Positions 16,109 to 36,380 of a stretch of 64,000 bases of DNA are shown piece after piece; within the stretch, counting starts at the first letter, position 1, and each line of letters starts with the position of its first letter. The notes under the pieces were generated by a model. It saw only the letters and a program-made list of their open reading frames with translations. It did not search any database and had not been told where the DNA came from. This DNA is from Actinomycetota bacterium (GTDB taxonomy: Bacteria > Actinomycetota > Thermoleophilia > Solirubrobacterales > 70-9), in the NCBI GenBank assembly GCA_046730395.1, contig JBKPIV010000009.1, positions 9,114 to 73,113 of the forward strand. Reading direction: 5' to 3'. The translations under genes were made by a program, and so were the position numbers.

Positions 16109-17614
16109 ATGGACCCGGCGATCCCGCACGACCGTAATGCCTTCGTGGCGAGACGGATCGAGGATCCTGGACTTCCGATCAAGTTCGGGCCCTGCTCGAA
16201 CGGTGAGTTCGTACCTCCGCCGCTCACCCCCGTCGAGCGCGAGGCGATCCGCGAGGCGCGCCTGGCGTGCGGCGAGAACGCGCGCAGCGGGGGAATGTCG
16301 CGGCGCCAGTTCCTGTTCACCGCCTCCGCGGCGGCGACTACCCTGCTCGCGCTCCAGGGCTGCCTCGGCGACTCCGGCAACTCGTCGGGCGGCCGCTACA
16401 CCGTCCCGGCCGAGGCCGGCGAGGATCAGGACGCCGCCCGCGCCGCGCTCGGCGGGGAGGAGTTCATCTTCGATGTCCAGGGGCACCACTTGGAGTACGA
16501 CCTGATGCCCTCGACGCGGGGCGAGCCGTTCTTCGGCTCGGTGTTCCCGCAGGTGAACTGCGGTAAGGACAACCCCCGCGCCTGCTTCGCACGCGAGGTG
16601 TTCCTGGAGGACTTCTTCATCCGCAGCGACACCGATCTGGTGACGCTGTCGGCCCTTCCGATCGCCCCGAAGGGGAGCCCGCTCTCGGCGGCGATCATGG
16701 AGGAGACCCGACAGACGGCCGAGCTCGCGTGCGGCTGGGACTCGGTGCTCCTCCATGCGCAGGCGCTGCCGAACTACGGGCCCTTGGGCACAAACCTCGA
16801 GCAGATGGAGGAGCACGCGAGCAGGTACCCGATCGCCGCCTGGAAGGTCTTCACCCACTTTCCCGACGCGTTCGGCGACCCCGGCAACGCCTGGCGCCTC
16901 GACGACGCCGACCCCAACCTTCGCCCGGTCGGACACGCGTTCATCAGCAAGGCCCGGGAGCTTAAGATCAAGACGATCTGTGCCCACAAGGGCTTCGGCG
17001 CGGGGAGCCGGTACGCGTCCCCCGAGGACGTACCGGGTGCCGCTCGCGACTTCCCGGACGTCAACTTCATCGTCTATCACTCGGGGTTCGAGGCGGGACA
17101 GCGCGAGGGCCCGTACACGGCTGCGACCGCGAACCGAGGCGTCAATCGGCTGATCACGGCGATGAAGAAGCACGGGGTGGCGCCGAACCAGAACGTCTAC
17201 GCCGAGCTCGGCTCGACTTGGTGGACGATCATGCGCGACCCTGCCCAGGCCTCACACGTGCTCGGCAAGCTGCTCCGCTATGTGGGCGAGGACAACGTCC
17301 TCTGGGGGACGGACTGCATCTTCTACGGCTCACCCCAGGATCAAATCCAGACCCTTCGGGCGTTCGAGATCTCCCGGGAGTTCCAGGAGCGCTTCGGCTA
17401 CCCCGAGCTGACGCGCGAGCTCAAGGCAAAGATCCTCGGTCTCAACGGCGCCCGGGTCTACGGCATCGAGCCGACGAGCCGGAAGTGCGAGTTCACCCGC
17501 AACGACCTCCAGGAGATCCGCCGCCAGATCGGCGGTAGACACGCTACCTACGGGCCGCGCAACGCCGCCGAGGTGCAGCGGGTGCGGGAGCACCACCGGG
17601 GCTGGCCCGGGTGA
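16109..17614 (+). CDS. Tat-exported lipoprotein, amidohydrolase-family metal-dependent hydrolase
   Basis: Twin-arginine signal (SRRQFLF) followed by the lipobox LLALQGC. The C-terminal domain resembles the amidohydrolase 2 family. The start is uncertain: ATG 16109 was chosen because the longer ORF would overlap the ku start. Confidence 0.65.
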   Translation: MDPAIPHDRNAFVARRIEDPGLPIKFGPCSNGEFVPPPLTPVEREAIREARLACGENARSGGMSRRQFLFTASAAATTLLALQGCLGDSGNSSGGRYTVPAEAGEDQDAARAALGGEEFIFDVQGHHLEYDLMPSTRGEPFFGSVFPQVNCGKDNPRACFAREVFLEDFFIRSDTDLVTLSALPIAPKGSPLSAAIMEETRQTAELACGWDSVLLHAQALPNYGPLGTNLEQMEEHASRYPIAAWKVFTHFPDAFGDPGNAWRLDDADPNLRPVGHAFISKARELKIKTICAHKGFGAGSRYASPEDVPGAARDFPDVNFIVYHSGFEAGQREGPYTAATANRGVNRLITAMKKHGVAPNQNVYAELGSTWWTIMRDPAQASHVLGKLLRYVGEDNVLWGTDCIFYGSPQDQIQTLRAFEISREFQERFGYPELTRELKAKILGLNGARVYGIEPTSRKCEFTRNDLQEIRRQIGGRHATYGPRNAAEVQRVREHHRGWPG

Positions 17615-18791: not shown

Positions 18792-19486
18792 GAGTCCCGC
18801 TTCTCGATCACGGGGCGCAGCCGATCGAGGGCACGTCGCAGGCGTGAGTTCACGGTTCCCCGAGGCACGTCGAGCATCTCGGCGATCTCCCCAGGCGTGT
18901 ACTCGAGCAGATAGCGCAACACGACTACTCCGCGGTGCTCGGGGGAGAGAGAGGCGAGCGCGCTCGCCAGGTCGTCCGAGTAGGGAGCGGACGGGCCGAG
19001 CTGGGGGCGGGCTGGGCCGCGCTCCAACCCCGGGTCGAGCGAGGTCTCCAACCGCAGCGCCCGCGCTCGGGCCCAGTCGATTGCTCGGTTGACGACGATC
19101 CGGTTCAGCCACGGGCCGAACGGCCGGCGGCGATCGAAGCGGTCGAGCCCCCTCACGGCGGACAGGAACGCCTCCTGAGCGATGTCCTCCGCCGCGGCGG
19201 CGTCGTGGACCACCAGATACGCCGCCCGGTGGGCCCACGGCCAATGCCGGCGGTAGAGCCTCTCGAGCGCCTCCTCGGACCCCGCCTGAGCGGCGCGAAT
19301 CCAGCGCTTCTCCTCACGACGATCCGCGCTTCTAGATCGCGAGAGGCCACGGCTTCGCGTCGTGGGTATCGCGATGCTCTGGGTTCCCCCGTCGGCGGCC
19401 AAGCGGATCTGCTCCTTGGAGCTCCAAACGACCAGCGCCGATCCAAGTGTCGCGGCAAGAGCGGCAAAGGTCCAGGCGCTGCCCAT
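18788..19486 (-). CDS. ECF (sigma-70 family group 4) RNA polymerase sigma factor
   Basis: Region 2 (LYRRHWPWAHRAAYLVVHDAAAAEDIAQEAFL) and a region 4 HTH (YTPGEIAEMLDVPRGTVNSRLRRA). The start is uncertain: ATG 19486 adds a ~50-aa extension with atypical codons. Confidence 0.8.
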   Translation of the reverse strand: MGSAWTFAALAATLGSALVVWSSKEQIRLAADGGTQSIAIPTTRSRGLSRSRSADRREEKRWIRAAQAGSEEALERLYRRHWPWAHRAAYLVVHDAAAAEDIAQEAFLSAVRGLDRFDRRRPFGPWLNRIVVNRAIDWARARALRLETSLDPGLERGPARPQLGPSAPYSDDLASALASLSPEHRGVVVLRYLLEYTPGEIAEMLDVPRGTVNSRLRRALDRLRPVIEKRDS

Positions 19487-29950: not shown

Positions 29951-31051
29951 ATGGTCAGCGTGACGATCACCTTTGCGCACAAGCTTGAGCGCCTGCCGCA
30001 CTACGAGGCTGGGATGCACGAGGACGCCGCGCGCGAGAGGTTCGGGTCCGACGAGATCATCAAGCTCGCCTCGAATGAGTCGCCGTGGGGCCCGCACCCC
30101 GCGGTAGCGGAGGCGGTGGGTCGCGCCGCGCGAGGGCTGAACCGCTACCCGGACCAGCACGCGCGCCGCCTTCGCCGCCGCATCGCGGAGCGATTCGACA
30201 CCGATCCGGCGCGGGTGGCGGTGGGAAACGGGTCCTGCGAGCTCCTGCTCGCGGCCGCCGAGGCCCTCTGCGACCCGGGCGACGAGGTCGTCCTCGCCTG
30301 GCCCTCGTTCTCGATCTACCCCCACCTGGCCGCGCTCTCCGGCGCCCGCGAGATCCGGGTGCCGCTCGGTGAGGGCTACGTGCACGAGCTCGACGCGATG
30401 CTGGCGGAGATCACCGCCGCGACCCAGCTCGTGTGCGTCTGCAACCCCAACAACCCCACGGGCACCCACCTGCCGGCCGCCCGGATCGGCGAGTTCCTGG
30501 AAGGCGTGCCCGACCACGTCACGGTCGCGCTCGACGAGGCCTACGTCGAGTTCCAGGTCGACGACGACCCGGATGCCACATTCGACCTGCTGGCCGAGTT
30601 CCCGAACCTGGTCGTGCTGCGCACGTTCAGCAAGGTCTACGGTCTGGCCGGACTTCGGATCGGCTACGCGCTGTGCGGCGCCCGGTTCCGGGCCGCCGTC
30701 GACGCGGTCCGCCAGCCGTTCAGCGTCAACGAGCTGGCGCAGGTCGCCGCCGCCGAGGCCATCTTGCATCAAGACGACGTCACCCAGCGCGTCGAGCGCA
30801 CGATCGTCGAGCGGATCTTCGTCGAGGAGGGGTTGCGCGACCTGGGGCTGGAGCCCGCCGATTCGCAGGCGAACTTCTCCTGGGTCCCGCTGGGCGACAG
30901 GGACGAGGTCGAGGTGATCGACCGGCTCGGCGAGCAGGGGATCGTGGTCCGCGGCGGCGAGGGGCTGGGGGGCCCGGGCCATATCCGCGTCACCTATGGG
31001 ACGCGTCCGGAGAACCATCGCTTCCTCGAGGCGCTCGCGGCGGCCCTCTGA
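29951..31051 (+). CDS. hisC: Histidinol-phosphate/aromatic aminotransferase (class II PLP aminotransferase)
   Basis: KLASNESPWGP, NPNNPTG, and the PLP lysine motif RTFSKVYGLAGLRIGY. It lies at the head of the aromatic biosynthesis block, so it may act as an aromatic aminotransferase. Confidence 0.8.
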   Translation: MVSVTITFAHKLERLPHYEAGMHEDAARERFGSDEIIKLASNESPWGPHPAVAEAVGRAARGLNRYPDQHARRLRRRIAERFDTDPARVAVGNGSCELLLAAAEALCDPGDEVVLAWPSFSIYPHLAALSGAREIRVPLGEGYVHELDAMLAEITAATQLVCVCNPNNPTGTHLPAARIGEFLEGVPDHVTVALDEAYVEFQVDDDPDATFDLLAEFPNLVVLRTFSKVYGLAGLRIGYALCGARFRAAVDAVRQPFSVNELAQVAAAEAILHQDDVTQRVERTIVERIFVEEGLRDLGLEPADSQANFSWVPLGDRDEVEVIDRLGEQGIVVRGGEGLGGPGHIRVTYGTRPENHRFLEALAAAL

Positions 31052-31060
31052 TCACCGAGT

Positions 31061-31089
31061 TTGCGGAATCGGCCGGCGCCTGCTACAAC
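31061..31089 (+). promoter_or_regulatory. Candidate promoter (TTGCGG-17 nt-TACAAC) positioned for a leaderless transcript starting at ATG 31097
   Basis: A -35-like TTGCGG at 31061-31066, an exact 17-nt spacer, and a -10-like TACAAC at 31084-31089 that ends 7 nt before ATG 31097. Confidence 0.3.
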
Positions 31090-31096
31090 CCCGGCA

Positions 31097-31186
31097 ATGA
31101 GTTGCCGAAGCACGCAGGCTCTCCACACCGTCCCGCAGGGGCTGCGCCCGCGTGCCCGCGTCTTTTACTACTGGCGATTTAGCTAG
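31097..31186 (+). CDS. Candidate 29-codon leader peptide MSCRSTQALHTVPQGLRPRARVFYYWRFS (aromatic-codon cluster)
   Basis: I translated this by hand; it is too short for the supplied ORF track. Five of the last seven codons are Phe/Tyr/Trp (ttt tac tac tgg cga ttt). It lies 137 nt upstream of the DAHP synthase gene. Confidence 0.4.
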   Translation: MSCRSTQALHTVPQGLRPRARVFYYWRFS

Positions 31187-31239
31187 GCGTCCGGCCGCGG
31201 CTGCCTGAGCCGTACCGCAGAAGAACTCAGCCGGACGCC
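31186..31239 (+). promoter_or_regulatory. Perfect 10-bp GC-rich stem-loop starting at the last base of the leader ORF stop codon
   Basis: GGCGTCCGGC (31186-31195) pairs perfectly with GCCGGACGCC (31230-31239), leaving a 34-nt loop. Confidence 0.4.
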
Positions 31240-31322
31240 GTAGAAGCGCCTCGTTTGGGCGCCACGCTGCATCCGACTCGCGAACTTCGACGAACGATGA
31301 GACTGAAAGGCAAAGCAAGACC

Positions 31323-32348
31323 ATGATGATCGTGATGAAAGAGGGGGCGACCGAGGAGCAGATTCGCTCGGTCGTCAAGCGGGTCGAAGGGCTCGGCTGC
31401 TCCGCCCACGTCTCGCAGGGCGAGGTGCTGACGGTGATCGGGGCGATCGGCGACCGCGACCGGGTCGCGGCACTCGGGCTCGAGGGCGCGCCGGGCGTCG
31501 ACCACTTGGTGCCGATCCTGAAGCCCTACAAGCTCGCCTCGGCGCAGTTCCGCAAGGGCGAGCGCACCGTGATCGAGGTGGACGGCCGCAGGGTCGGGGG
31601 CGATGCCTTCGCGCTGATCGCCGGCCCCTGCACGGTCGAGAGCCGAAAGCAGACGCTCGAGGTGGCGCAGGTGGTGGCGGAGAACGGGGGCTCGATGCTG
31701 CGAGGGGGCGCGTACAAGCCGCGCACCTCGCCGTACTCCTTCCAGGGCCTCGGCGCCGAGGGCCTCCGGTTCCTCCAAGAGGCCAAGGAGCAGACGGGGC
31801 TGCCGGTGGTTACCGAGCTGATGGACGTTCGCGACGTCGCCGACGTGGTCGAGGTCGCCGATGTGATCCAGGTCGGCGCTCGCAACATGCAGAACTATGT
31901 GCTGCTCTCGGAGGTGGGACGGGCCGGCCTTCCCGTGCTCCTGAAGCGAGGGCTGTCCGCGACGCTCGAGGAGCTCTTGATGGCGGCCGAGTACGTGCTC
32001 AAGGAGGGGAACGAAAACGTGATGCTGTGCGAGCGCGGCATCAGGACCTTCGAGAGCTCCTACCGGTTCACCCTCGACCTCCTCGCGGTGCCCGCGCTCC
32101 GCGAGCTCACCCACCTCCCGGTGATCGTCGATCCCAGCCACGCGGCGGGGAGGCGGGACTGGGTGCAGCCGATGTCCCTCGCCGCGGTGGCGGCCGGCGC
32201 CGACGGGATCATCGTCGAGGTGCACAACGAGCCGGAGGAGGCGATCTGCGACGGGCCTCAGGCAGTACCGACGGAGGCGTTCGCCGCGTACGCGGACCAG
32301 CTCCAGCGGGTGGCCGAGGTAGCGGGCAAGGTGCTGAGCACCGTTTAG
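31323..32348 (+). CDS. aroF: 3-deoxy-7-phosphoheptulonate (DAHP) synthase, type I-beta, with an N-terminal ferredoxin-like regulatory domain
   Basis: An N-terminal [13 protein letters not shown]...[10 protein letters not shown] regulatory domain, then the catalytic IAGPCTVES...[18 protein letters not shown]. Confidence 0.9.
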
Positions 32349-32358
32349 GTTCGCGAGC

Positions 32359-33444
32359 GTGCGGATCGCTGTCCTCGGCGTCGGGCTGATCGGAGGCTCG
32401 ATCGGGCTGGCGGCGAGGCGGCGGCTCGACGCCGAGGTGGTCGGCTTCGACGCCGATCGCGAGAACGCCGAGCGGGGCCGCGAACTGGGGGCGCTCGACG
32501 CGGTTGCCGGCGGGGTCGGGGAGGCCGTCGACGGCGCAAAGATCGTCTTCTGCGCGGCGCCCGTGCGGGCCCTGCCGGCGCTGGTCGCCGAGGCGCTCGC
32601 GAAGAGCTGCGGCGACGCGGTGGTCACCGACGTCGGCTCGACCAAGCGCGAGCTGATCGAGAGCCTGTCCGAGAGCGAAGCGCTCGAGCGGTTCACCGGC
32701 GGTCACCCGCTGGCCGGGGCGGAGACGGCCGGGGTCGCGAACGCGAGGGCCGACCTGCTCGAGGGAGCGCGGTGGTACCTGACCCCGACGCGCCGCTCGA
32801 GCGGGCTTCTCTACGACCGCCTGCAGCGCGCGATCGCGGACCTCGGCGCCCGTCCGCAGGCCATCGACGCCGAGAGCCACGACCGCCTGATGGCGACCGT
32901 GAGCCACGTCCCGCACGTGGTCGCCAACGTCCTCGTCCGCCAGGCGGCGGCAGCCGCCGCCGAGGAGTCCGAGCGCCTGCCCGAGGTCGGCCCGAGCTTT
33001 CGCGACACGACCCGCGTCGCGGGCGCCAACCCGGCGGTCTGGGGAGACATCTTCGCCTCCAATCGGGAGACCGTCGCGAGCGAGGTCGAGGCCGTCTCGC
33101 GCCGGCTCCGGGAGGCGGCGGAGCTGATTCGCTCCGGCGACGCCGACAGGGTCGCCGCCTGGCACGGCGCCGCCCGCGATGCCCGGCGCCGCCTCCTGGA
33201 ATCCGAGCTCGTGGGCGGGGAGCTCTACGAGCTCCGGGTCGCCGTGGAGAACCGGCCCGGGACAGTGGCGGAGATCGCCCTCGCGCTGGGCCGCGCCGGG
33301 GTCAACATCGAGGACATGGCGCTCTATCCCGCGCCCGACATGCGGACCGGAGCCGTCTCGCTGTGGGTGGCGGGCGATGCCGAGGCCGCGCGGGCGGCCG
33401 AGATCGTCCGCGGGATGGGGCATTCCGCCTCGATCTCGGAGTGA
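32359..33444 (+). CDS. tyrA: Prephenate dehydrogenase with a C-terminal ACT domain
   Basis: N-terminal Rossmann motif IAVLGVGLIGGSIG, the HPLAG motif, and a C-terminal ACT-like segment (LRVAVENRPGTVAEIALALGRAGVNIEDM). Confidence 0.85.
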   Translation: MRIAVLGVGLIGGSIGLAARRRLDAEVVGFDADRENAERGRELGALDAVAGGVGEAVDGAKIVFCAAPVRALPALVAEALAKSCGDAVVTDVGSTKRELIESLSESEALERFTGGHPLAGAETAGVANARADLLEGARWYLTPTRRSSGLLYDRLQRAIADLGARPQAIDAESHDRLMATVSHVPHVVANVLVRQAAAAAAEESERLPEVGPSFRDTTRVAGANPAVWGDIFASNRETVASEVEAVSRRLREAAELIRSGDADRVAAWHGAARDARRRLLESELVGGELYELRVAVENRPGTVAEIALALGRAGVNIEDMALYPAPDMRTGAVSLWVAGDAEAARAAEIVRGMGHSASISE

Positions 33445-33448
33445 GCCG

Positions 33449-34825
33449 GTGACTCGGTTCGTCCCAGCCGGGCCGCTTCGCGGCGCGCTTCGGCCGCCGC
33501 CCGACAAGTCGATCAGCCACCGGGCGGCGCTGGTCGCGGGGATGGGGGAGGGGGAGACGGCGATCGAGGGGTATCTGGACGCGGCTGACACCCGCGCGAC
33601 GCTTCGGGCCATACAGCGGCTGGGTGCGGAGGTGGTGATCCTCGATGGACCGAGGGACGAAAAACGCCGACATGGTGGACGAAATTCGCCCGCGGGCGGA
33701 ATCGACCTAAGGGTGCACGGCGTCGGCCTCCGCGGCCCCCTACCCAGCGACATCGAGGTCGGCAATGCGGGGACGCTCCTGCGGATACTGCCCGGCTGGC
33801 TGGCGGGACAGGGCGGGGGAAGCTGGACCCTCGACGGTGACGACTCGATCCGCCGGCGCCCCGTCGACCGCATCGCCGAGCCGCTGGTGAGAATGGGGGC
33901 CGAGGTCTCATGCCGCGACGGCCGGCTCCCGCCGATCCGGGTCGAAGGGGCGGCGCTCCGGGGTATCGACTACGAGCTGCCCGTGGCGAGCGCCCAGGTG
34001 AAGTCGTGCGTGCTGCTCGCCGGCCTCCTCGCCGACGGGCGCACGACGGTCGTCGAGCGCCAGCCGACCCGCGATCACACGGAGCGCATGCTCCGCGCCG
34101 CCGGGGCCCGGGTGAGGATCGAGGACGTCGGTACGCCGATCGCGATCCGCGGCGTGCTCCCCGCGCGCAGGGTGATCGTGGACCCGGCGGCGAGGCTCGA
34201 GCCGGGCAGGATCGCGGTTCCCGGGGACTTCTCATCGGCGGCCTTCTTCCTCGTCGCCGCCCTGCTCGTGTCCGGGAGCGAGGTGCGGCTCGAGGGAGTG
34301 GGGATCAATCCGGGACGGATCGGGCTGCTCGGGATCCTGACCCGGATGGGAGCGTCGATCGAGGTGATCGAGACCGCTCCCGCGAGCCCGGAGCCGGTGG
34401 CGACGATCACCGCCCGCTCGAGCGTCCTTGCGGCGACCCGCGTCGGTGGCGGCGAGGTGCCGCTGGCGATCGACGAGCTGCCCTTGCTGGCGCTGGCGGC
34501 GTGCCTCGCGGAGGGGGAGACGGTGCTGTCGGGAGCGCGCGAGCTTCGTCACAAGGAGTCGGATCGGATCGCGACCGTGGTCGAGGGCCTCAGGTCACTC
34601 GGCGGGGATGTCGAGGCGCGCGAGGATGGCTTCGCCGTGCGGGGGAGCGGGGACATCCGGGGCGGGCGGCTCGATGCGGCCGGCGACCACCGCCTCGCGA
34701 TGCTCGGCGCGATCGCCGGCCTCGCCTCCCGCGAGGGCGTCGAGGTGGTCGGGATGGAGTCGGCCGCCGTCAGCTACCCGAGCTTCGAGTCCGATCTGGC
34801 CTCGCTGGTGGAAGGGGGGCGCTAG
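33449..34825 (+). CDS. aroA: 3-phosphoshikimate 1-carboxyvinyltransferase (EPSP synthase)
   Basis: PPDKSISHRAAL, GNAGTLLR, and KESDRIA motifs. GTG 33449 lies just after the tyrA stop. Confidence 0.9.
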   Translation: MTRFVPAGPLRGALRPPPDKSISHRAALVAGMGEGETAIEGYLDAADTRATLRAIQRLGAEVVILDGPRDEKRRHGGRNSPAGGIDLRVHGVGLRGPLPSDIEVGNAGTLLRILPGWLAGQGGGSWTLDGDDSIRRRPVDRIAEPLVRMGAEVSCRDGRLPPIRVEGAALRGIDYELPVASAQVKSCVLLAGLLADGRTTVVERQPTRDHTERMLRAAGARVRIEDVGTPIAIRGVLPARRVIVDPAARLEPGRIAVPGDFSSAAFFLVAALLVSGSEVRLEGVGINPGRIGLLGILTRMGASIEVIETAPASPEPVATITARSSVLAATRVGGGEVPLAIDELPLLALAACLAEGETVLSGARELRHKESDRIATVVEGLRSLGGDVEAREDGFAVRGSGDIRGGRLDAAGDHRLAMLGAIAGLASREGVEVVGMESAAVSYPSFESDLASLVEGGR

Positions 34826-34876: not shown

Positions 34877-35830
34877 GTGGCCGACGACGCTGCACCGCTT
34901 CGCTTCCACGACGGGACGCTTTACGTGCTCGACCAGCGTCGCCTACCCGGCGAGGAGGCCTGGGTGCGGTGCCGAAGCGTCGAGCAGGTGGCCGACTGCA
35001 TTCGCACGATGGCGGTCCGCGGGGCGCCCGCGATCGGCCTCGCGGCCGCCTACGGGATGGCGCTGGCGGCGCGGGCGGGCGAGGATCTCGAGACCGCCGG
35101 GGCGCTTCTTCGCCGGACGCGGCCGACCGCGGCCAACCTCGCCTGGGCGGTGGAGCAGGCGAGCGCCGCCGACGACCCCCTGGCGCTGGCCGAGCGGCTT
35201 CACCGCGAGCAAACGGAGGCGGATCGCCGGCTGTCCGAGCTCGGGGCCGAGCGCTTCGTACAGGGCGATCGCGCGCTCACCCACTGCAACACCGGCCCGC
35301 TCGCGACCGGCGGCTTCGGCACCGCGGGCGGGGTGCTCCGCGCCGCCTGGCGGCGGGGCCGGCTGGCGCAGGTCTGGGTGGACGAGACGCGACCCCGTCT
35401 CCAGGGCGCCCGGCTGACCGCGTGGGAGCTGCGCCGCGCCGGGATCCCGTTCAGGGTGATCGCCGACGCGGCGGCGGGTGGCCTGATCGCCCGGGGGCTG
35501 GTGGATCGCGTCATCGTCGGAGCCGACCGGATCGCCGCGAACGGGGACCTCGCGAACAAGGTCGGGACGTACCCGCTGGCCGTGCTCGCCGCCCGCCACG
35601 GCGTCCCCTTCTACGTCGCGGCGCCGGTTTCGACGATCGATCCGCACACGCCGAACGGCGATGGGATCCCGATCGAGGAGCGCGACCCGGCGGAGGTGAC
35701 CGCCTCGAGCGAAGCGCTCAATCCGGCGTTCGACATCACCCCGGCCGAGCTGATCAACGTCATGTTCACCGAGAAGGGGGTGCTCGAGCCGCCCTACGAG
35801 GAGTCGATCGCGCGTGTCGCTTCGGGCTGA
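34877..35830 (+). CDS. mtnA: S-methyl-5-thioribose-1-phosphate isomerase (eIF-2B alpha/beta/delta family)
   Basis: LYVLDQRRLP, MAVRGAPAIG, CNTGPLAT, and GADRIAANGD motifs. Confidence 0.85.
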   Translation: MADDAAPLRFHDGTLYVLDQRRLPGEEAWVRCRSVEQVADCIRTMAVRGAPAIGLAAAYGMALAARAGEDLETAGALLRRTRPTAANLAWAVEQASAADDPLALAERLHREQTEADRRLSELGAERFVQGDRALTHCNTGPLATGGFGTAGGVLRAAWRRGRLAQVWVDETRPRLQGARLTAWELRRAGIPFRVIADAAAGGLIARGLVDRVIVGADRIAANGDLANKVGTYPLAVLAARHGVPFYVAAPVSTIDPHTPNGDGIPIEERDPAEVTASSEALNPAFDITPAELINVMFTEKGVLEPPYEESIARVASG

Positions 35831-36380
35831 CGTCGTCGCCGCCGCGCGGCAGATGCACCGCCTTGGGTTGGTCGCCGCCACGCACGGAAACGTCAGCGCG
35901 CGGGAAGGCGACCTCGTGCACATCACGCCGACCGCGCTCCCCTACGAGGGGATGTCGGAAGCCGATCTCGTGACGCTCTCCCTCACCGGCCAGGTGGTCG
36001 ACGGCGAGCGGGAGCCGTCCAGCGAGCGCAGGGTGCACCTGGCGGTGTACGCGGCCCGGCCCGATGTCGCGGCGATCGTGCACACCCACAGCGTCTATGC
36101 GACCGCCTGGAGCTTTCGGGGAGAGCTCCTCGACACGGGCACGGAGGAGCTCCAGGCGGCCGCGGGAGGACCCGTGCGTACGGCGCCCCAGGCTCCCTCG
36201 GGCTCGGGCGCCATCGCGCGGGCCGCGGTCACGGCGCTCGCCGACCGCCGCGCCGCGCTCCTCGCCCGTCACGGCGTCCTGGGGTTGGGCACCTCGCCCG
36301 CGCGGGCGCTTGCCGTCTGCGCCGTCGTCGAGCGCCAGGCCCAGCTCGCGTGGCTCCTTTCAGGAGCCGCGGGGCGCTAG
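35814..36380 (+). CDS. Class II aldolase/adducin-family protein (MtnB-like dehydratase or fuculose-phosphate aldolase-like)
   Basis: THGNVSAR, EPSSERRVH, and AIVHTHS metal-ligand motifs. It overlaps the mtnA 3' end. Confidence 0.7.
   Translation: MSLRADVVAAARQMHRLGLVAATHGNVSAREGDLVHITPTALPYEGMSEADLVTLSLTGQVVDGEREPSSERRVHLAVYAARPDVAAIVHTHSVYATAWSFRGELLDTGTEELQAAAGGPVRTAPQAPSGSGAIARAAVTALADRRAALLARHGVLGLGTSPARALAVCAVVERQAQLAWLLSGAAGR

Follow-up and report, generated by a model that had tools for sequence, protein, structure and literature searches.

The 271-nt gap (31052-31322, read from the sequence) that separates the stop codon of a hisC-like gene (31049-31051) from the ATG of a DAHP synthase gene (31323) probably encodes a leader peptide, by which the supply of aromatic aminoacyl-tRNAs would be sensed for the DAHP synthase-tyrA-aroA operon (Table 1). 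The short upstream open reading frame (uORF) lies on the same strand as the DAHP synthase gene, 136 nt 5' of its ATG, and ends in VFYYWRFS-stop, encoded by GTC 31160, TTT 31163, TAC 31166, TAC 31169, TGG 31172, CGA 31175, TTT 31178 and AGC 31181. Two of the features by which a leader attenuator is recognised, a short same-strand ORF 5' of biosynthetic genes and a cluster of codons for the products of the pathway, were found. Gap, 29-codon uORF and aromatic end had been described in the initial annotation, and reading the sequence again located each of them where it had placed them; the identities that it gave to the downstream genes were borne out by Pfam and NCBIfam, which recognise an FXD domain together with DAHP_synth_1, and TIGR01361, in the DAHP synthase. 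Its proposal of a candidate attenuator gains support from the conservation of a family of leaders, from a frame-specific enrichment of aromatic codons, from a covarying stem and from a conserved promoter. We infer from these features, rather than observe, translation of the uORF and its transcription start, as well as the direction of regulation and an output by masking of initiation or by Rho-dependent termination.

Table 1. Features of the leader region and of the downstream operon. Positions refer to the window, i.e., the whole 64-kb stretch of DNA analysed.
Feature	Position	Strand	Details	Basis
Leader promoter	31061-31089	+	-35 TTGCGG 31061-31066, 17-nt spacer, extended -10 TGC TACAAC 31081-31089 (TACAAC 31084-31089)	Sequence reading, relatives
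Leader peptide uORF	31097-31186	+	29 sense codons and TAG, MSCRSTQALHTVPQGLRPRARVFYYWRFS; ATG 31097, TAG 31184-31186	
Sensor codons	31163-31180	+	TTT TAC TAC TGG CGA TTT (F Y Y W R F)	Per-codon aromatic profile, frame comparison
Invariant block	31171-31189	+	CTGG CGA TTT AGC TAG GCG (last four sense codons, stop, first hairpin bases)	Alignment of loci
Hairpin P1	31186-31239	+	10-bp stem 31186-31195 (GGCGTCCGGC) / 31230-31239 (GCCGGACGCC); inner hairpin 31197-31202 / 31208-31213	Sequence, folds
Post-hairpin segment	31240-31262	+	GUAGAAG 31240-31246; small hairpin GCGCC 31246-31250 / GGCGC 31258-31262	MFE folds
DAHP synthase translation start	31304-31325	+	Conserved TGAAAGGC, Shine-Dalgarno-like GAAAGG 31305-31310, ATG 31323	GAAAG count in leaders
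Target genes	31323-34825	+	DAHP synthase 31323-32348, tyrA 32359-33444, aroA ending at 34825	Pfam, NCBIfam

The cassette is not peculiar to this genome. When 80 related Solirubrobacterales/Thermoleophilia loci were retrieved through the DAHP synthase protein, 55 proved to have uORF, hairpin and invariant block together, 100-290 nt 5' of the gene. An exact-match scan of metagenomes for the block returned 120 loci, of which 72 encode a DAHP synthase of class I-beta and 35 one of the AroFGH-type class I-alpha, 12 are too short to tell and one is a chance match. The cassette precedes two classes of the enzyme, the Bacillus-type I-beta and the AroFGH-type I-alpha, at about 107 metagenome loci, always directly 5' of the DAHP synthase gene and on its strand in both classes, and it occurs once per locus in the 1.4 Mb of sequence scanned. 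The leader family counts more than 170 instances in related bacteria. Conservation of the F/Y/W cluster and of the stem had been named beforehand as a check, and both are kept in the 55 genome loci and in the roughly 107 metagenome loci. The window itself holds a single exact copy of the block, the only other match (at 18881) having three mismatches, which is within chance, and no second copy of the element was found elsewhere in the window or in the sequence of related loci. Of the 25 related loci devoid of the block, 22 lack any aromatic-rich stretch of reading frame within the 400 nt searched 5' of the gene, and none of the aromatic-rich stretches of the other block-less loci (L033, L075 and L078) ends in WRF-stop.

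The codon content of the uORF is that expected of an aromatic sensor. Stretches with at least five aromatic residues per ten codons occur at two places in the six frames of the 64-kb window, one of which is the uORF, against a background of 5.4% F+Y+W in the residues of seven neighbouring genes. The homologous uORFs of 54 genome loci span 14-46 codons, mostly 22-34, and start with ATG in 50 cases and with GTG in four; over their last ten codons, aromatic codons amount to 29.8% in frame as compared to 1.8% and 4.2% in the other frames, and in-frame stops are lacking. The open frame, the kept start codon, the frame-bound composition and a promoter positioned for leaderless initiation give indirect evidence that the uORF would be translated. 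Codon by codon, the aromatic frequency in 56 leaders rises from 0-5% at positions -20 to -15 to 40-60% at -10 to -6, and reaches 95% for Trp at -4 and 100% for Phe at -2. The rarity of TTT noted in the initial annotation holds in the seven neighbouring genes, where it accounts for 5 of 74 Phe codons, and CGA for 14 of 236 Arg codons; TAT makes up 46% of the Tyr codons in leaders vs. 19% in genes. The N-terminal two thirds of the uORF are not conserved in sequence, yet they are C-rich and G-poor.

The promoter-like element proposed earlier, TTGCGG-17 nt-TACAAC with 7 nt to the ATG of the uORF, is indeed present, and most relatives, I-alpha loci included, carry a comparable one 5' of the uORF start (TTGNCN, TCGAC or TTGACT, 17-18 nt, then TGn TACAA(A/C)). 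Between the -10 and the start codon lie 7-10 nt in the I-alpha loci and the clade of the window, as compared to 12-16 nt in loci of the Solirubrobacteraceae type; going by the -10/ATG geometry alone, the uORF message is probably leaderless or near-leaderless. A consensus scan called neither promoter nor terminator in the gap region, and it overlooked this promoter because position 6 of the -10 is a C in place of the final T.

At its 3' end the uORF runs into hairpin P1, whose first base, G31186, also closes the stop codon; the perfect 10-bp stem that starts in the stop codon and the weak 5-bp stem at 31246-31262, both of them claims of the initial annotation, were recognised on reading the sequence. 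The two arms of P1 are perfectly complementary in the window, and P1 occurs in all family members, with an interior and junctions that vary in sequence and architecture. Of 86 distinct sequences, 19 have both bases of its pair 5 exchanged and 23 both bases of its pair 6 (U-A, C-G, U-G), and none of 500 shuffles reached the observed covariation, a comparison in which the arms had been chosen by their pairing. Many relatives with a long spacer have a small hairpin after P1, of differing sequence, and those with a short spacer have none. Taken over its full length, the gap shows no unusually good folding (z = -1.2). A role of P1 as terminator was rejected, as no U tract follows it and because a ribosome stalled upstream would leave P1 free, so that starvation would shut the operon. 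A read-through or frameshift product was rejected as well: the in-frame UAG that follows P1 in the window requires a P1 span divisible by three, unlike in the relatives. Further downstream, the Shine-Dalgarno-like GAAAG was found in 91 of 133 leaders as compared to 10 expected.

We propose that the promoter would start the transcript at, or a few bases from, the ATG of the uORF, which would therefore be read as a leaderless or near-leaderless message. In its last third the ribosome would meet the cluster of Phe, Tyr and Trp codons that ends at the foot of P1, several of these codons being rare and presumably slowly decoded. When charged tRNA-Phe, tRNA-Tyr or tRNA-Trp is scarce, the ribosome would stall and cover the 3' part of the uORF, a strand that would otherwise pair with leader RNA further downstream, P1 bringing the two strands together; in most relatives the DAHP synthase gene's Shine-Dalgarno/start region would be the partner, and in the window the segment following P1 is predicted to be. 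The stalled ribosome would thereby keep the downstream message open for translation, and may also bar Rho from moving along the C-rich untranslated leader. With aromatic amino acids in ample supply, the ribosome would reach the UAG and leave, the closed fold would form and expression of the operon would drop.

The output step of this scheme draws on the family. Duplexes between the aromatic strand and the start region of the DAHP synthase gene were stronger with a locus's own partner than with those of other loci (-19.4 vs. -17.6 kcal/mol), with z = -6.3 over 2000 permutations in which related sequences were treated as independent. Composition alone already makes U-rich aromatic codons complementary to purine-rich ribosome-binding sites. 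As judged at the sequence level, uORF and start region have co-evolved in their complementarity across the family. In L196, CAUGGUUCUA can pair with UAGAACCAUG, in L015 and L059 CUUCUCCUA with UAGGAGAAG, the duplex of L004 reaches -27.5 kcal/mol, and L037, L031 and L047 are further clear cases; compensatory changes occur among these examples. In the window, pairing of the uORF with its own start region does not surpass that with foreign partners (rank 0.74), and short matches only were found, either GUCUU 31160-31164 with AAGAC 31317-31321 or GUCUUUUA 31160-31167 with UGAAAGGC 31304-31311. MFE folds of the window predict instead that GUAGAAG, which overlaps the small post-P1 hairpin, pairs with the Phe/Tyr codons CUUUUAC (31162-31168), a pairing specific to the window and unsupported by relatives. 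Folds mimicking ribosome occupancy, a check suggested by the initial annotation, revealed no clear switch in the window: in partition-function folds that placed ribosome footprints at six positions, Shine-Dalgarno accessibility stayed steady at 0.51-0.60. Across 54 loci, footprint-constrained folds shifted the mean accessibility slightly, from 0.43 to 0.46, without consistent unmasking.

The same sensor could act through Rho-dependent termination, a tentative alternative that we hold possible on sequence grounds, and in which the uORF RNA would be the loading site of Rho, the stalled ribosome a roadblock, fast termination at the UAG would free the path of Rho, and P1 would serve as a polymerase pause or timing element. 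The base composition is consistent with it: leader RNA has 41% C and 26% G, C exceeds G in 52 of 54 leaders, and the genes of the window have a C/G ratio of 0.97 (95th percentile of 78-nt windows, 1.43). The C-richness may, however, reflect codons for Ala, Ser, Thr, Pro and Arg, or a 5' end kept unstructured for leaderless initiation. Two further observations agree with Rho, namely that the constrained folds give no consistent Shine-Dalgarno switch and that the gap has no intrinsic terminator. The terminator/antiterminator pair that the initial annotation had been unable to identify was not found here either: no hairpin followed by a T run occurs in 30900-31500, where the terminator/antiterminator set of classical attenuators is thus missing, and no relative has a U tract after P1. 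Canonical terminators are nonetheless at chance level in the 60 kb scanned (12 found vs. about 12.9 expected), and their absence from the gap therefore says little. What termination by Rho leaves unexplained is the co-evolving complementarity between uORF and start region.

The last codons of the uORF pose a different question. The family consensus of the block, (C)TGG CGA TTT AnC TAG GCG, translates as Trp-Arg-Phe-x-stop and is at least 90% identical at each position in the loci retrieved via the DAHP synthase protein, apart from the second base of the last sense codon. Its CGA and TTT, rare codons in the genome, are invariant across leaders, and such frozen synonymous sites point to a constraint at the level of RNA or decoding rather than one purely on the peptide. 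Plain tRNA sensing leaves the synonymous-site invariance of CGA, UUU and UAG unaccounted for. Beyond a run of hungry codons, the block may be a dedicated module for ribosome arrest or recognition, which we regard as unlikely: either peptide, codons and hairpin would jointly detain the ribosome at the uORF's end on a signal that is not tRNA charging, e.g., free aromatic amino acids, or the block would bind a trans-acting factor. Under that reading it would form a mobile cassette that reaches 15 nt into coding sequence and has been grafted onto two unrelated classes of DAHP synthase. Several structural roles of the block were rejected. A small hairpin inside it (UGGC/GCUA) would use its variable base for pairing; a tRNA-like element, suggested by the resemblance of GAUUUAGCU to the 5' part of a tRNA, had no ARAGORN match, and its G10-equivalent is again the one variable base; pairing of the block with a downstream motif of the GUAGGAUUUCCAG type or with the Shine-Dalgarno sequence showed a complementarity that is partial, lineage-specific and absent in the window.

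Trp-Arg-Phe-x-stop, the fixed codons and the hairpin could also form a nascent-peptide- or codon-dependent arrest module, TnaC-like in principle, where a stall at or near the stop would answer free aromatic amino acids or another signal, instead of or besides tRNA charging. As in TnaC, the C-terminal residues are conserved and include a Trp (W at -4, R at -3, F at -2, with a free last residue), the stop is fixed (always UAG), the region near it is C-rich and a role of Rho is possible; this is only a resemblance. A ribosome with UUU or UAG in its A site would have to open the base of P1, as geometry and general knowledge of ribosome footprints indicate, and the freezing of synonymous sites on rare codons fits a stall there, although, as said, it favours a constraint on RNA or decoding over one on the peptide. 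TnaC differs in that it induces a catabolic operon on free Trp, whereas end products are expected to shut down, not induce, a biosynthetic operon, so that extra assumptions would be needed. The aromatic codons upstream of the block vary in number and position, as expected of hungry-codon sensing, and this variable run, unlike TnaC, points to tRNA sensing. The uORF shares no sequence resemblance with TnaC and, to our knowledge, its peptide resembles no known arrest peptide, which also counts against this explanation. We consider it very unlikely.

Still less probable is that uORF and P1 are a separate small transcription unit, for a small protein or an RNA that stops at P1, with the DAHP synthase gene transcribed from a proximal promoter of its own. 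Many relatives, with either enzyme class, carry a TANNNT-like element (TAGGAT, TACGAT, TAGAGT, TAACAT) 25-40 nt 5' of the DAHP synthase start, which could serve as a second promoter and so bypass the leader, and P1 would offer a strong GC hairpin immediately 3' of the stop codon. The element is, however, missing from the window and from the relatives closest to it; in some family members it is complementary to Ser/Tyr codons of the uORF, e.g., CCUAUUUCUGG with CCGGAAGUAGG, and can therefore equally be read as an RNA strand. Such a unit would also be at odds with a cassette always placed directly 5' of, and on the same strand as, genes for two classes of DAHP synthase, and with a peptide conserved solely in its aromatic content and last residues.

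That block and P1 are a protein- or metabolite-binding (riboswitch-like) RNA or a nuclease site, the reading frame being incidental, is hardly credible, since aromatic codons are enriched strictly in the one frame, whose start codons are conserved, the interior and junctions of P1 are variable, no Rfam family matches even at E = 10, no tRNA-like element is present and the candidate motifs are not general (GAUYU in 27 of 133 leaders, RRRUY in 61 of 160 vs. 37 expected), against which stand the invariance of the 18-nt block at the nucleotide level and a GA|UUU adjoining the stem-loop, which we take to resemble an RNase E-type site. With these counts, both GAUYU repeats as multimeric sites for an RNA-binding protein and a pseudoknot of GAUUU with the P1 interior (RRRUY), the latter absent in the window, were rejected. 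The same lack of an Rfam match ruled out a T-box, a riboswitch and a known leader family: the whole window has no match at the gathering score, and 30900-31500 has two at chance level (E at least 3).

Known systems place the leader between several models, and the best reading by analogy would be that its architecture is closest to the leaderless polycysteine sORFs of mycobacteria and its function like that of aroR and pheL/trpL. In those mycobacterial sORFs, the stalling of ribosomes keeps the ribosome-binding site downstream from being sequestered in RNA structures (Canestrari et al., bioRxiv 10.1101/834739). Here too a leaderless short ORF would come first, with a tract of codons for the amino acid of the downstream operon and no need of a terminator. 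Theirs are cysteine codons and here aromatic ones; theirs arose independently at several loci, whereas here one conserved cassette has an invariant 18-nt block, and masking of the ribosome-binding site is statistically supported in relatives, not in the window. In Corynebacterium glutamicum the leader peptide aroR, with its Phe-Tyr-Phe, lies 5' of aroF (cg1129) and responds to Phe, according to PMC11802643 and PMC4046766 (Mentz et al., 2013), and it is described as transcription attenuation; the initial annotation had correctly named such a leader. Stalling of ribosomes on its Phe/Tyr codons raises operon expression (Neshat et al., 2014, summarised in PMC11802643). Compared by these descriptions only, aroR shares with the present leader a short ORF with mixed aromatic codons directly 5' of an actinobacterial DAHP synthase gene; it differs in that here no terminator was found, Trp is included, an invariant WRFx-stop on rare codons sits at the hairpin foot and, in Thermoleophilia, DAHP synthases of two classes share the cassette. 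With pheL-pheA and trpL-trpEDCBA of Escherichia coli it shares a clustering of codons for the amino acid under regulation, and alternative folds that would be set by ribosome position. Those leaders, however, are led by a Shine-Dalgarno sequence, have 1:2/2:3/3:4 hairpins and a U-tract terminator (Rfam Phe_leader, Trp_leader), none of which was found here, and each senses one amino acid, where here there would be three.

If the proposed leader peptide is confirmed, it would extend the use of leaderless short ORFs as amino acid sensors in Actinobacteria, as well as attenuation without classical terminators. All three aromatic amino acids would be integrated by a single sensor at the pathway's first committed step, beyond the allosteric control exerted through the FXD domain. 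The frozen Trp-Arg-Phe-x-stop on rare codons may reveal how codon choice, nascent peptide and hairpin jointly set the dwell time of the ribosome. Gene callers overlook uORFs of this kind, and the block (TGGCGATTTANCTAGGCG) provides a simple key to search for them. For Thermoleophilia, abundant and almost unstudied actinobacteria of soil, this would be the first leader peptide or regulatory RNA described for the synthesis of aromatic amino acids.

The elements that the initial annotation had described upstream of the DAHP synthase gene, namely the intergenic gap, a candidate leader-peptide short ORF (uORF), a perfect stem forming a hairpin (hereafter P1), a promoter-like element and a weak stem, were each recovered when the sequence was read (see table), and domain and family matches confirmed the operon as DAHP synthase followed by tyrA and aroA. 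The DAHP synthase is of the Bacillus type (I-beta), with an N-terminal ferredoxin-like regulatory domain (PF18152 and PF00793; TIGR01361) and 82-90% identity to proteins of Solirubrobacterales/Thermoleophilia metagenome-assembled genomes, and tyrA carries an ACT domain. Genes resembling mtnA and mtnB come after aroA: a methylthioribose-1-phosphate isomerase-like gene (IF-2B family) and a class II aldolase gene occupy 34877-36380 on the aroA strand, either overlapping or spaced by very short gaps, and co-transcription of these methionine-salvage genes with the aromatic operon is therefore possible.

Features of the leader region in the window
Feature	Position	Details
hisC-type aminotransferase gene (TIGR01141)	stop codon 31049-31051	read from sequence
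Gap from hisC stop to DAHP synthase start		271 nt; DAHP synthase starts at 31323
Promoter-like element	TTGCGG 31061-66, TACAAC 31084-89	17-nt spacer; TGC before the -10; 7 nt from -10 to ATG
uORF	ATG 31097 to TAG 31184-86	encodes MSCRSTQALHTVPQGLRPRARVFYYWRFS
P1 stem	GGCGTCCGGC 31186-95 / GCCGGACGCC 31230-39	perfect pairing; G31186 is the final base of the stop codon
Weak stem	31246-50 / 31258-62	read from sequence

The claimed rarity of TTT was borne out in seven neighbouring genes (5 of 74 Phe codons), where CGA provides 14 of 236 Arg codons and aromatic amino acids 5.4% of the residues. Six-frame translation of the 64-kb window (71% G+C) yielded two 10-codon stretches with at least five aromatic residues, the uORF among them; the other, FWFGATPCFF (17164-17193, minus strand), may lie within a gene. 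The gap folded no better than shuffled sequence (z = -1.2), and simple consensus scans called neither a promoter nor a terminator there.

Conservation of the aromatic codon cluster and of the stem, the check originally proposed, was found in 55 of 80 genome loci, retrieved via the DAHP synthase protein and hence independently of the leader, and in metagenome loci as well. In the 55 loci a nearly invariant block, cCTGGCGATTTAnCTAGGCG, lies 100-290 nt 5' of the gene and always closes a short ORF, 14-46 codons long and in most cases 22-34, which starts with ATG in 50 of 54 cases and with GTG in four; a hairpin follows directly, its first base being the G of the stop codon. The order hisC-gap-DAHP synthase is kept in most of them, with gaps of 170-400 nt. 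Of the 25 loci devoid of the block, three (L033, L075 and L078) have an aromatic-rich reading-frame window within the 400 nt before the gene, none of these windows ending in WRF-stop, and the other 22 have no such window. A scan of metagenome contigs for exact TGGCGATTTANCTAGGCG matched at least 120 loci; among the matches listed, an I-beta enzyme lies 80-240 nt downstream in at least 72 and an AroFGH-type I-alpha DAHP synthase (TIGR00034, without the FXD domain) lies downstream in at least 35, 12 are too short to classify and one is a chance match. Only one copy per locus occurs in the 1.4 Mb of sequence examined, and the window holds a single exact copy of the block. Judged by sequence comparison, the element is real, conserved and DAHP synthase-specific, and its presence before both enzyme classes indicates that the cassette is linked to the enzymatic step rather than to a single gene lineage.

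Two of the related loci, L032 (titled 'Chlamydiae bacterium') and L058 (titled 'Bifidobacterium breve' MAG), are high-GC with Solirubrobacterales-like hisC and DAHP synthase genes, the leader cassette being present in L032, and their organism names look like binning or labelling errors. The I-alpha cassette loci (at least 35 in all, including L085, L090-L092, L096-L098, L100, L106, L108, L121, L135, L139, L140, L153, L163, L167, L197 and L199) share promoter, uORF, WRFS-stop block and hairpin with the window-type loci, and their enzymes are too far from the window's I-beta enzyme for detection by tblastn. Upstream of the uORF start most loci show TTGNCN, TCGAC or TTGACT, a spacer of 17-18 nt and TG(C/G/A) TACAA(A/C), with the -35 frequently overlapping the hisC stop codon; promoters of I-alpha loci are near-consensus, e.g., TTGACT-17-TGATACAAC. 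The leaderless geometry claimed for the window recurs in its clade and in the I-alpha loci, with 7-10 nt between the -10 and the start codon, a spacing that is compatible with a leaderless mRNA or a leader of 1-3 nt. Solirubrobacteraceae-type loci have a longer distance, 12-16 nt, and their leader would be very short and without a clear Shine-Dalgarno sequence.

Consistent with reading by ribosomes, the uORFs contain no in-frame stops, and over the ten codons that precede Trp-Arg-Phe, aromatic codons amount to 29.8% in the uORF frame vs. 1.8 and 4.2% in the other frames. An aromatic fraction of 0-5% at codons -20 to -15 gives way to 38-61% at -10 to -6, where Tyr prevails, followed by Phe and Trp, and the peptide ends with Trp at -4 (95%), Arg at -3 and Phe at -2 (both 100%) and a variable last residue (Ser 40, Ile 10, Thr 3, Arg 2, Leu 1). 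TAT makes up 46% of Tyr codons in the leaders vs. 19% in genes of the window. The N-terminal two thirds show no sequence conservation; in 54 leaders this part (31100-31171 in the window) has a C/G ratio of about 1.6 vs. 0.97 in genes. Such a pattern of codon use and conservation would be expected of a sensor peptide, whose codons matter and whose product does not.

P1 is universal among the family loci and its basal GGCG/CGCC is invariant, while at pairs 5 and 6, which alternate between U-A, U-G and C-G, both bases differ in 19 and 23, respectively, of 86 distinct sequences; this covariation exceeded all 500 shuffles and all slid registers, for arms that had been chosen by their pairing. The interior varies, with one inner hairpin in the window's clade (31197-31213 in the window) and two in Solirubrobacteraceae-type loci, one of which bears a conserved CCGUGAGC loop. 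A small hairpin of variable sequence lies 3' of P1 in long-spacer loci (31246-62 in the window) and is missing where only ~45 nt separate P1 from the start codon. GAAAGG is a conserved Shine-Dalgarno-like element. The two DAHP synthase classes begin alike in nearly all loci, as M-(M/F/I)-I-(V/G)-M, encoded by ATGATGATCGTGATG, ATGATGATCGGGATG or ATGTTCATCGGCATG (31323-31337 in the window), and with this start in common the cassette seems to reach ~15 nt into the coding sequence; predicted folds of the window place the first AUG within a small hairpin formed locally (CAUGA/UCGUG). Many loci (e.g., L001, L006, L009, L044, L085, L139) have a TANNNT-like element 25-40 nt before the DAHP synthase start, often followed by TTCCAGG (GTAGGATTTCCAG, GTACGATTTCCAGG, CTAACATGCCCAGGCG) and absent from the window at 31283-31298; it might act as a further promoter or as an RNA strand with complementarity to the uORF's Ser/Tyr/Trp codons. 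Overall, the family, the frame-specific aromatics and the P1 covariation lend strong comparative support to the original interpretation as a leader-peptide attenuator, and we consider an aromatic sensor quite probable.

As for the output, one candidate is that a ribosome stalled on the aromatic codons unmasks the DAHP synthase start region for translation initiation. The aromatic-codon strand is complementary to that region in many relatives (CAUGGUUCUA with UAGAACCAUG in L196, CUUCUCCUA with UAGGAGAAG in L015 and L059, CCUUCGCCACCUGG with CCAGGUCGCGAAAGG in L037, a duplex of -27.5 kcal/mol in L004, further examples in L031 and L047). In 79 of 133 leaders CUGG, ending in the Trp codon, stands opposite a CCAG located -23 to -31 relative to the start codon, and some of the changes are compensatory (ACCUGG with CCAGGU; UCUCUGG with CCAGAGA). 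Duplexes with the own partner were better than permuted ones by 1.8 kcal/mol (z = -6.3), and shuffling of the leader strand gave p <= 0.05 in 15 of 54 loci. This own-partner complementarity supports masking of the kind shown in mycobacterial polycysteine sORFs, where a stalled ribosome uncovers the following gene's ribosome-binding site. The signal is absent in the window (rank 0.74), whose predicted folds pair the Phe/Tyr codons CUUUUAC (31162-68) with GUAGAAG (31240-46) directly after P1, a pairing that no relative supports. The ribosome-occupancy folds suggested in the initial annotation, run as partition functions with footprints, did not consistently make the Shine-Dalgarno sequence more accessible (mean accessibility over the family 0.43 free, 0.46 when stalled and 0.44 when terminating; 0.51-0.60 in the window). 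Masking of translation initiation is held tentatively, and is compatible with an output through Rho. Rho-dependent polarity or termination, blocked by the stalled ribosome, is a serious, if somewhat less favoured, alternative or addition, since the composition of the uORF RNA resembles that of a Rho loading site, rich in C (41%) and poor in G (26%), with C exceeding G in 52 of 54 leaders and a C/G ratio of 0.97 in genes. Intrinsic termination found no support: in line with the earlier failure to identify a convincing terminator, no locus has a hairpin with a U tract after P1, canonical terminators are at chance level (12 found vs. ~12.9 expected from shuffled sequence in 60 kb, window 1-60000), so that the organism apparently does not rely on them, and P1 itself would have the wrong logic, because a ribosome stalling further upstream, at the aromatic codons, leaves it free to form.

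Within the Trp-Arg-Phe-x-stop block, which runs into the first bases of P1, no leader departs from CGA, UUU and UAG at synonymous sites, CGA and UUU being rare in the window's genes. The 18 invariant nucleotides are more than plain hungry-codon sensing requires, and such sensing does not account for the block. Given typical ribosome footprints, UUU in the A site would presumably put the P1 base at the ribosome's mRNA entrance, and a ribosome at UAG would have to open 6-7 bp of P1. The simplest proposal is that the block is under selection for decoding slowly and for pausing a set time where P1 begins. Alternatively, the block may be an arrest-peptide-like module or the site of a trans-acting factor. 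No invariant cis partner of the block was found; the candidates tested were a mini-hairpin inside the block, base pairing to the Shine-Dalgarno sequence, repeats of GAUYU, a pseudoknot involving the P1 interior and a tRNA-like fold, and each failed or was not general.

Functional analogues of the window's leader are aroR-aroF of Corynebacterium glutamicum, pheL and trpL, and the mycobacterial polycysteine sORFs come closest in architecture, with a probably leaderless sORF, no terminator and a ribosome-binding site that is probably masked. No Rfam family matches the leader, a 2005 survey of actinobacterial attenuators, Rubrobacter included, reported nothing for DAHP synthase, and a full-text literature search combining Thermoleophilia and leader peptides found no paper. 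Classical leader-peptide attenuators are recognized by a terminator/antiterminator, in which the window's leader differs from them, and we file it as a new family within this known class. The leader is ordinary in principle and new in detail, its oddity being the frozen Trp-Arg-Phe-x-stop block.
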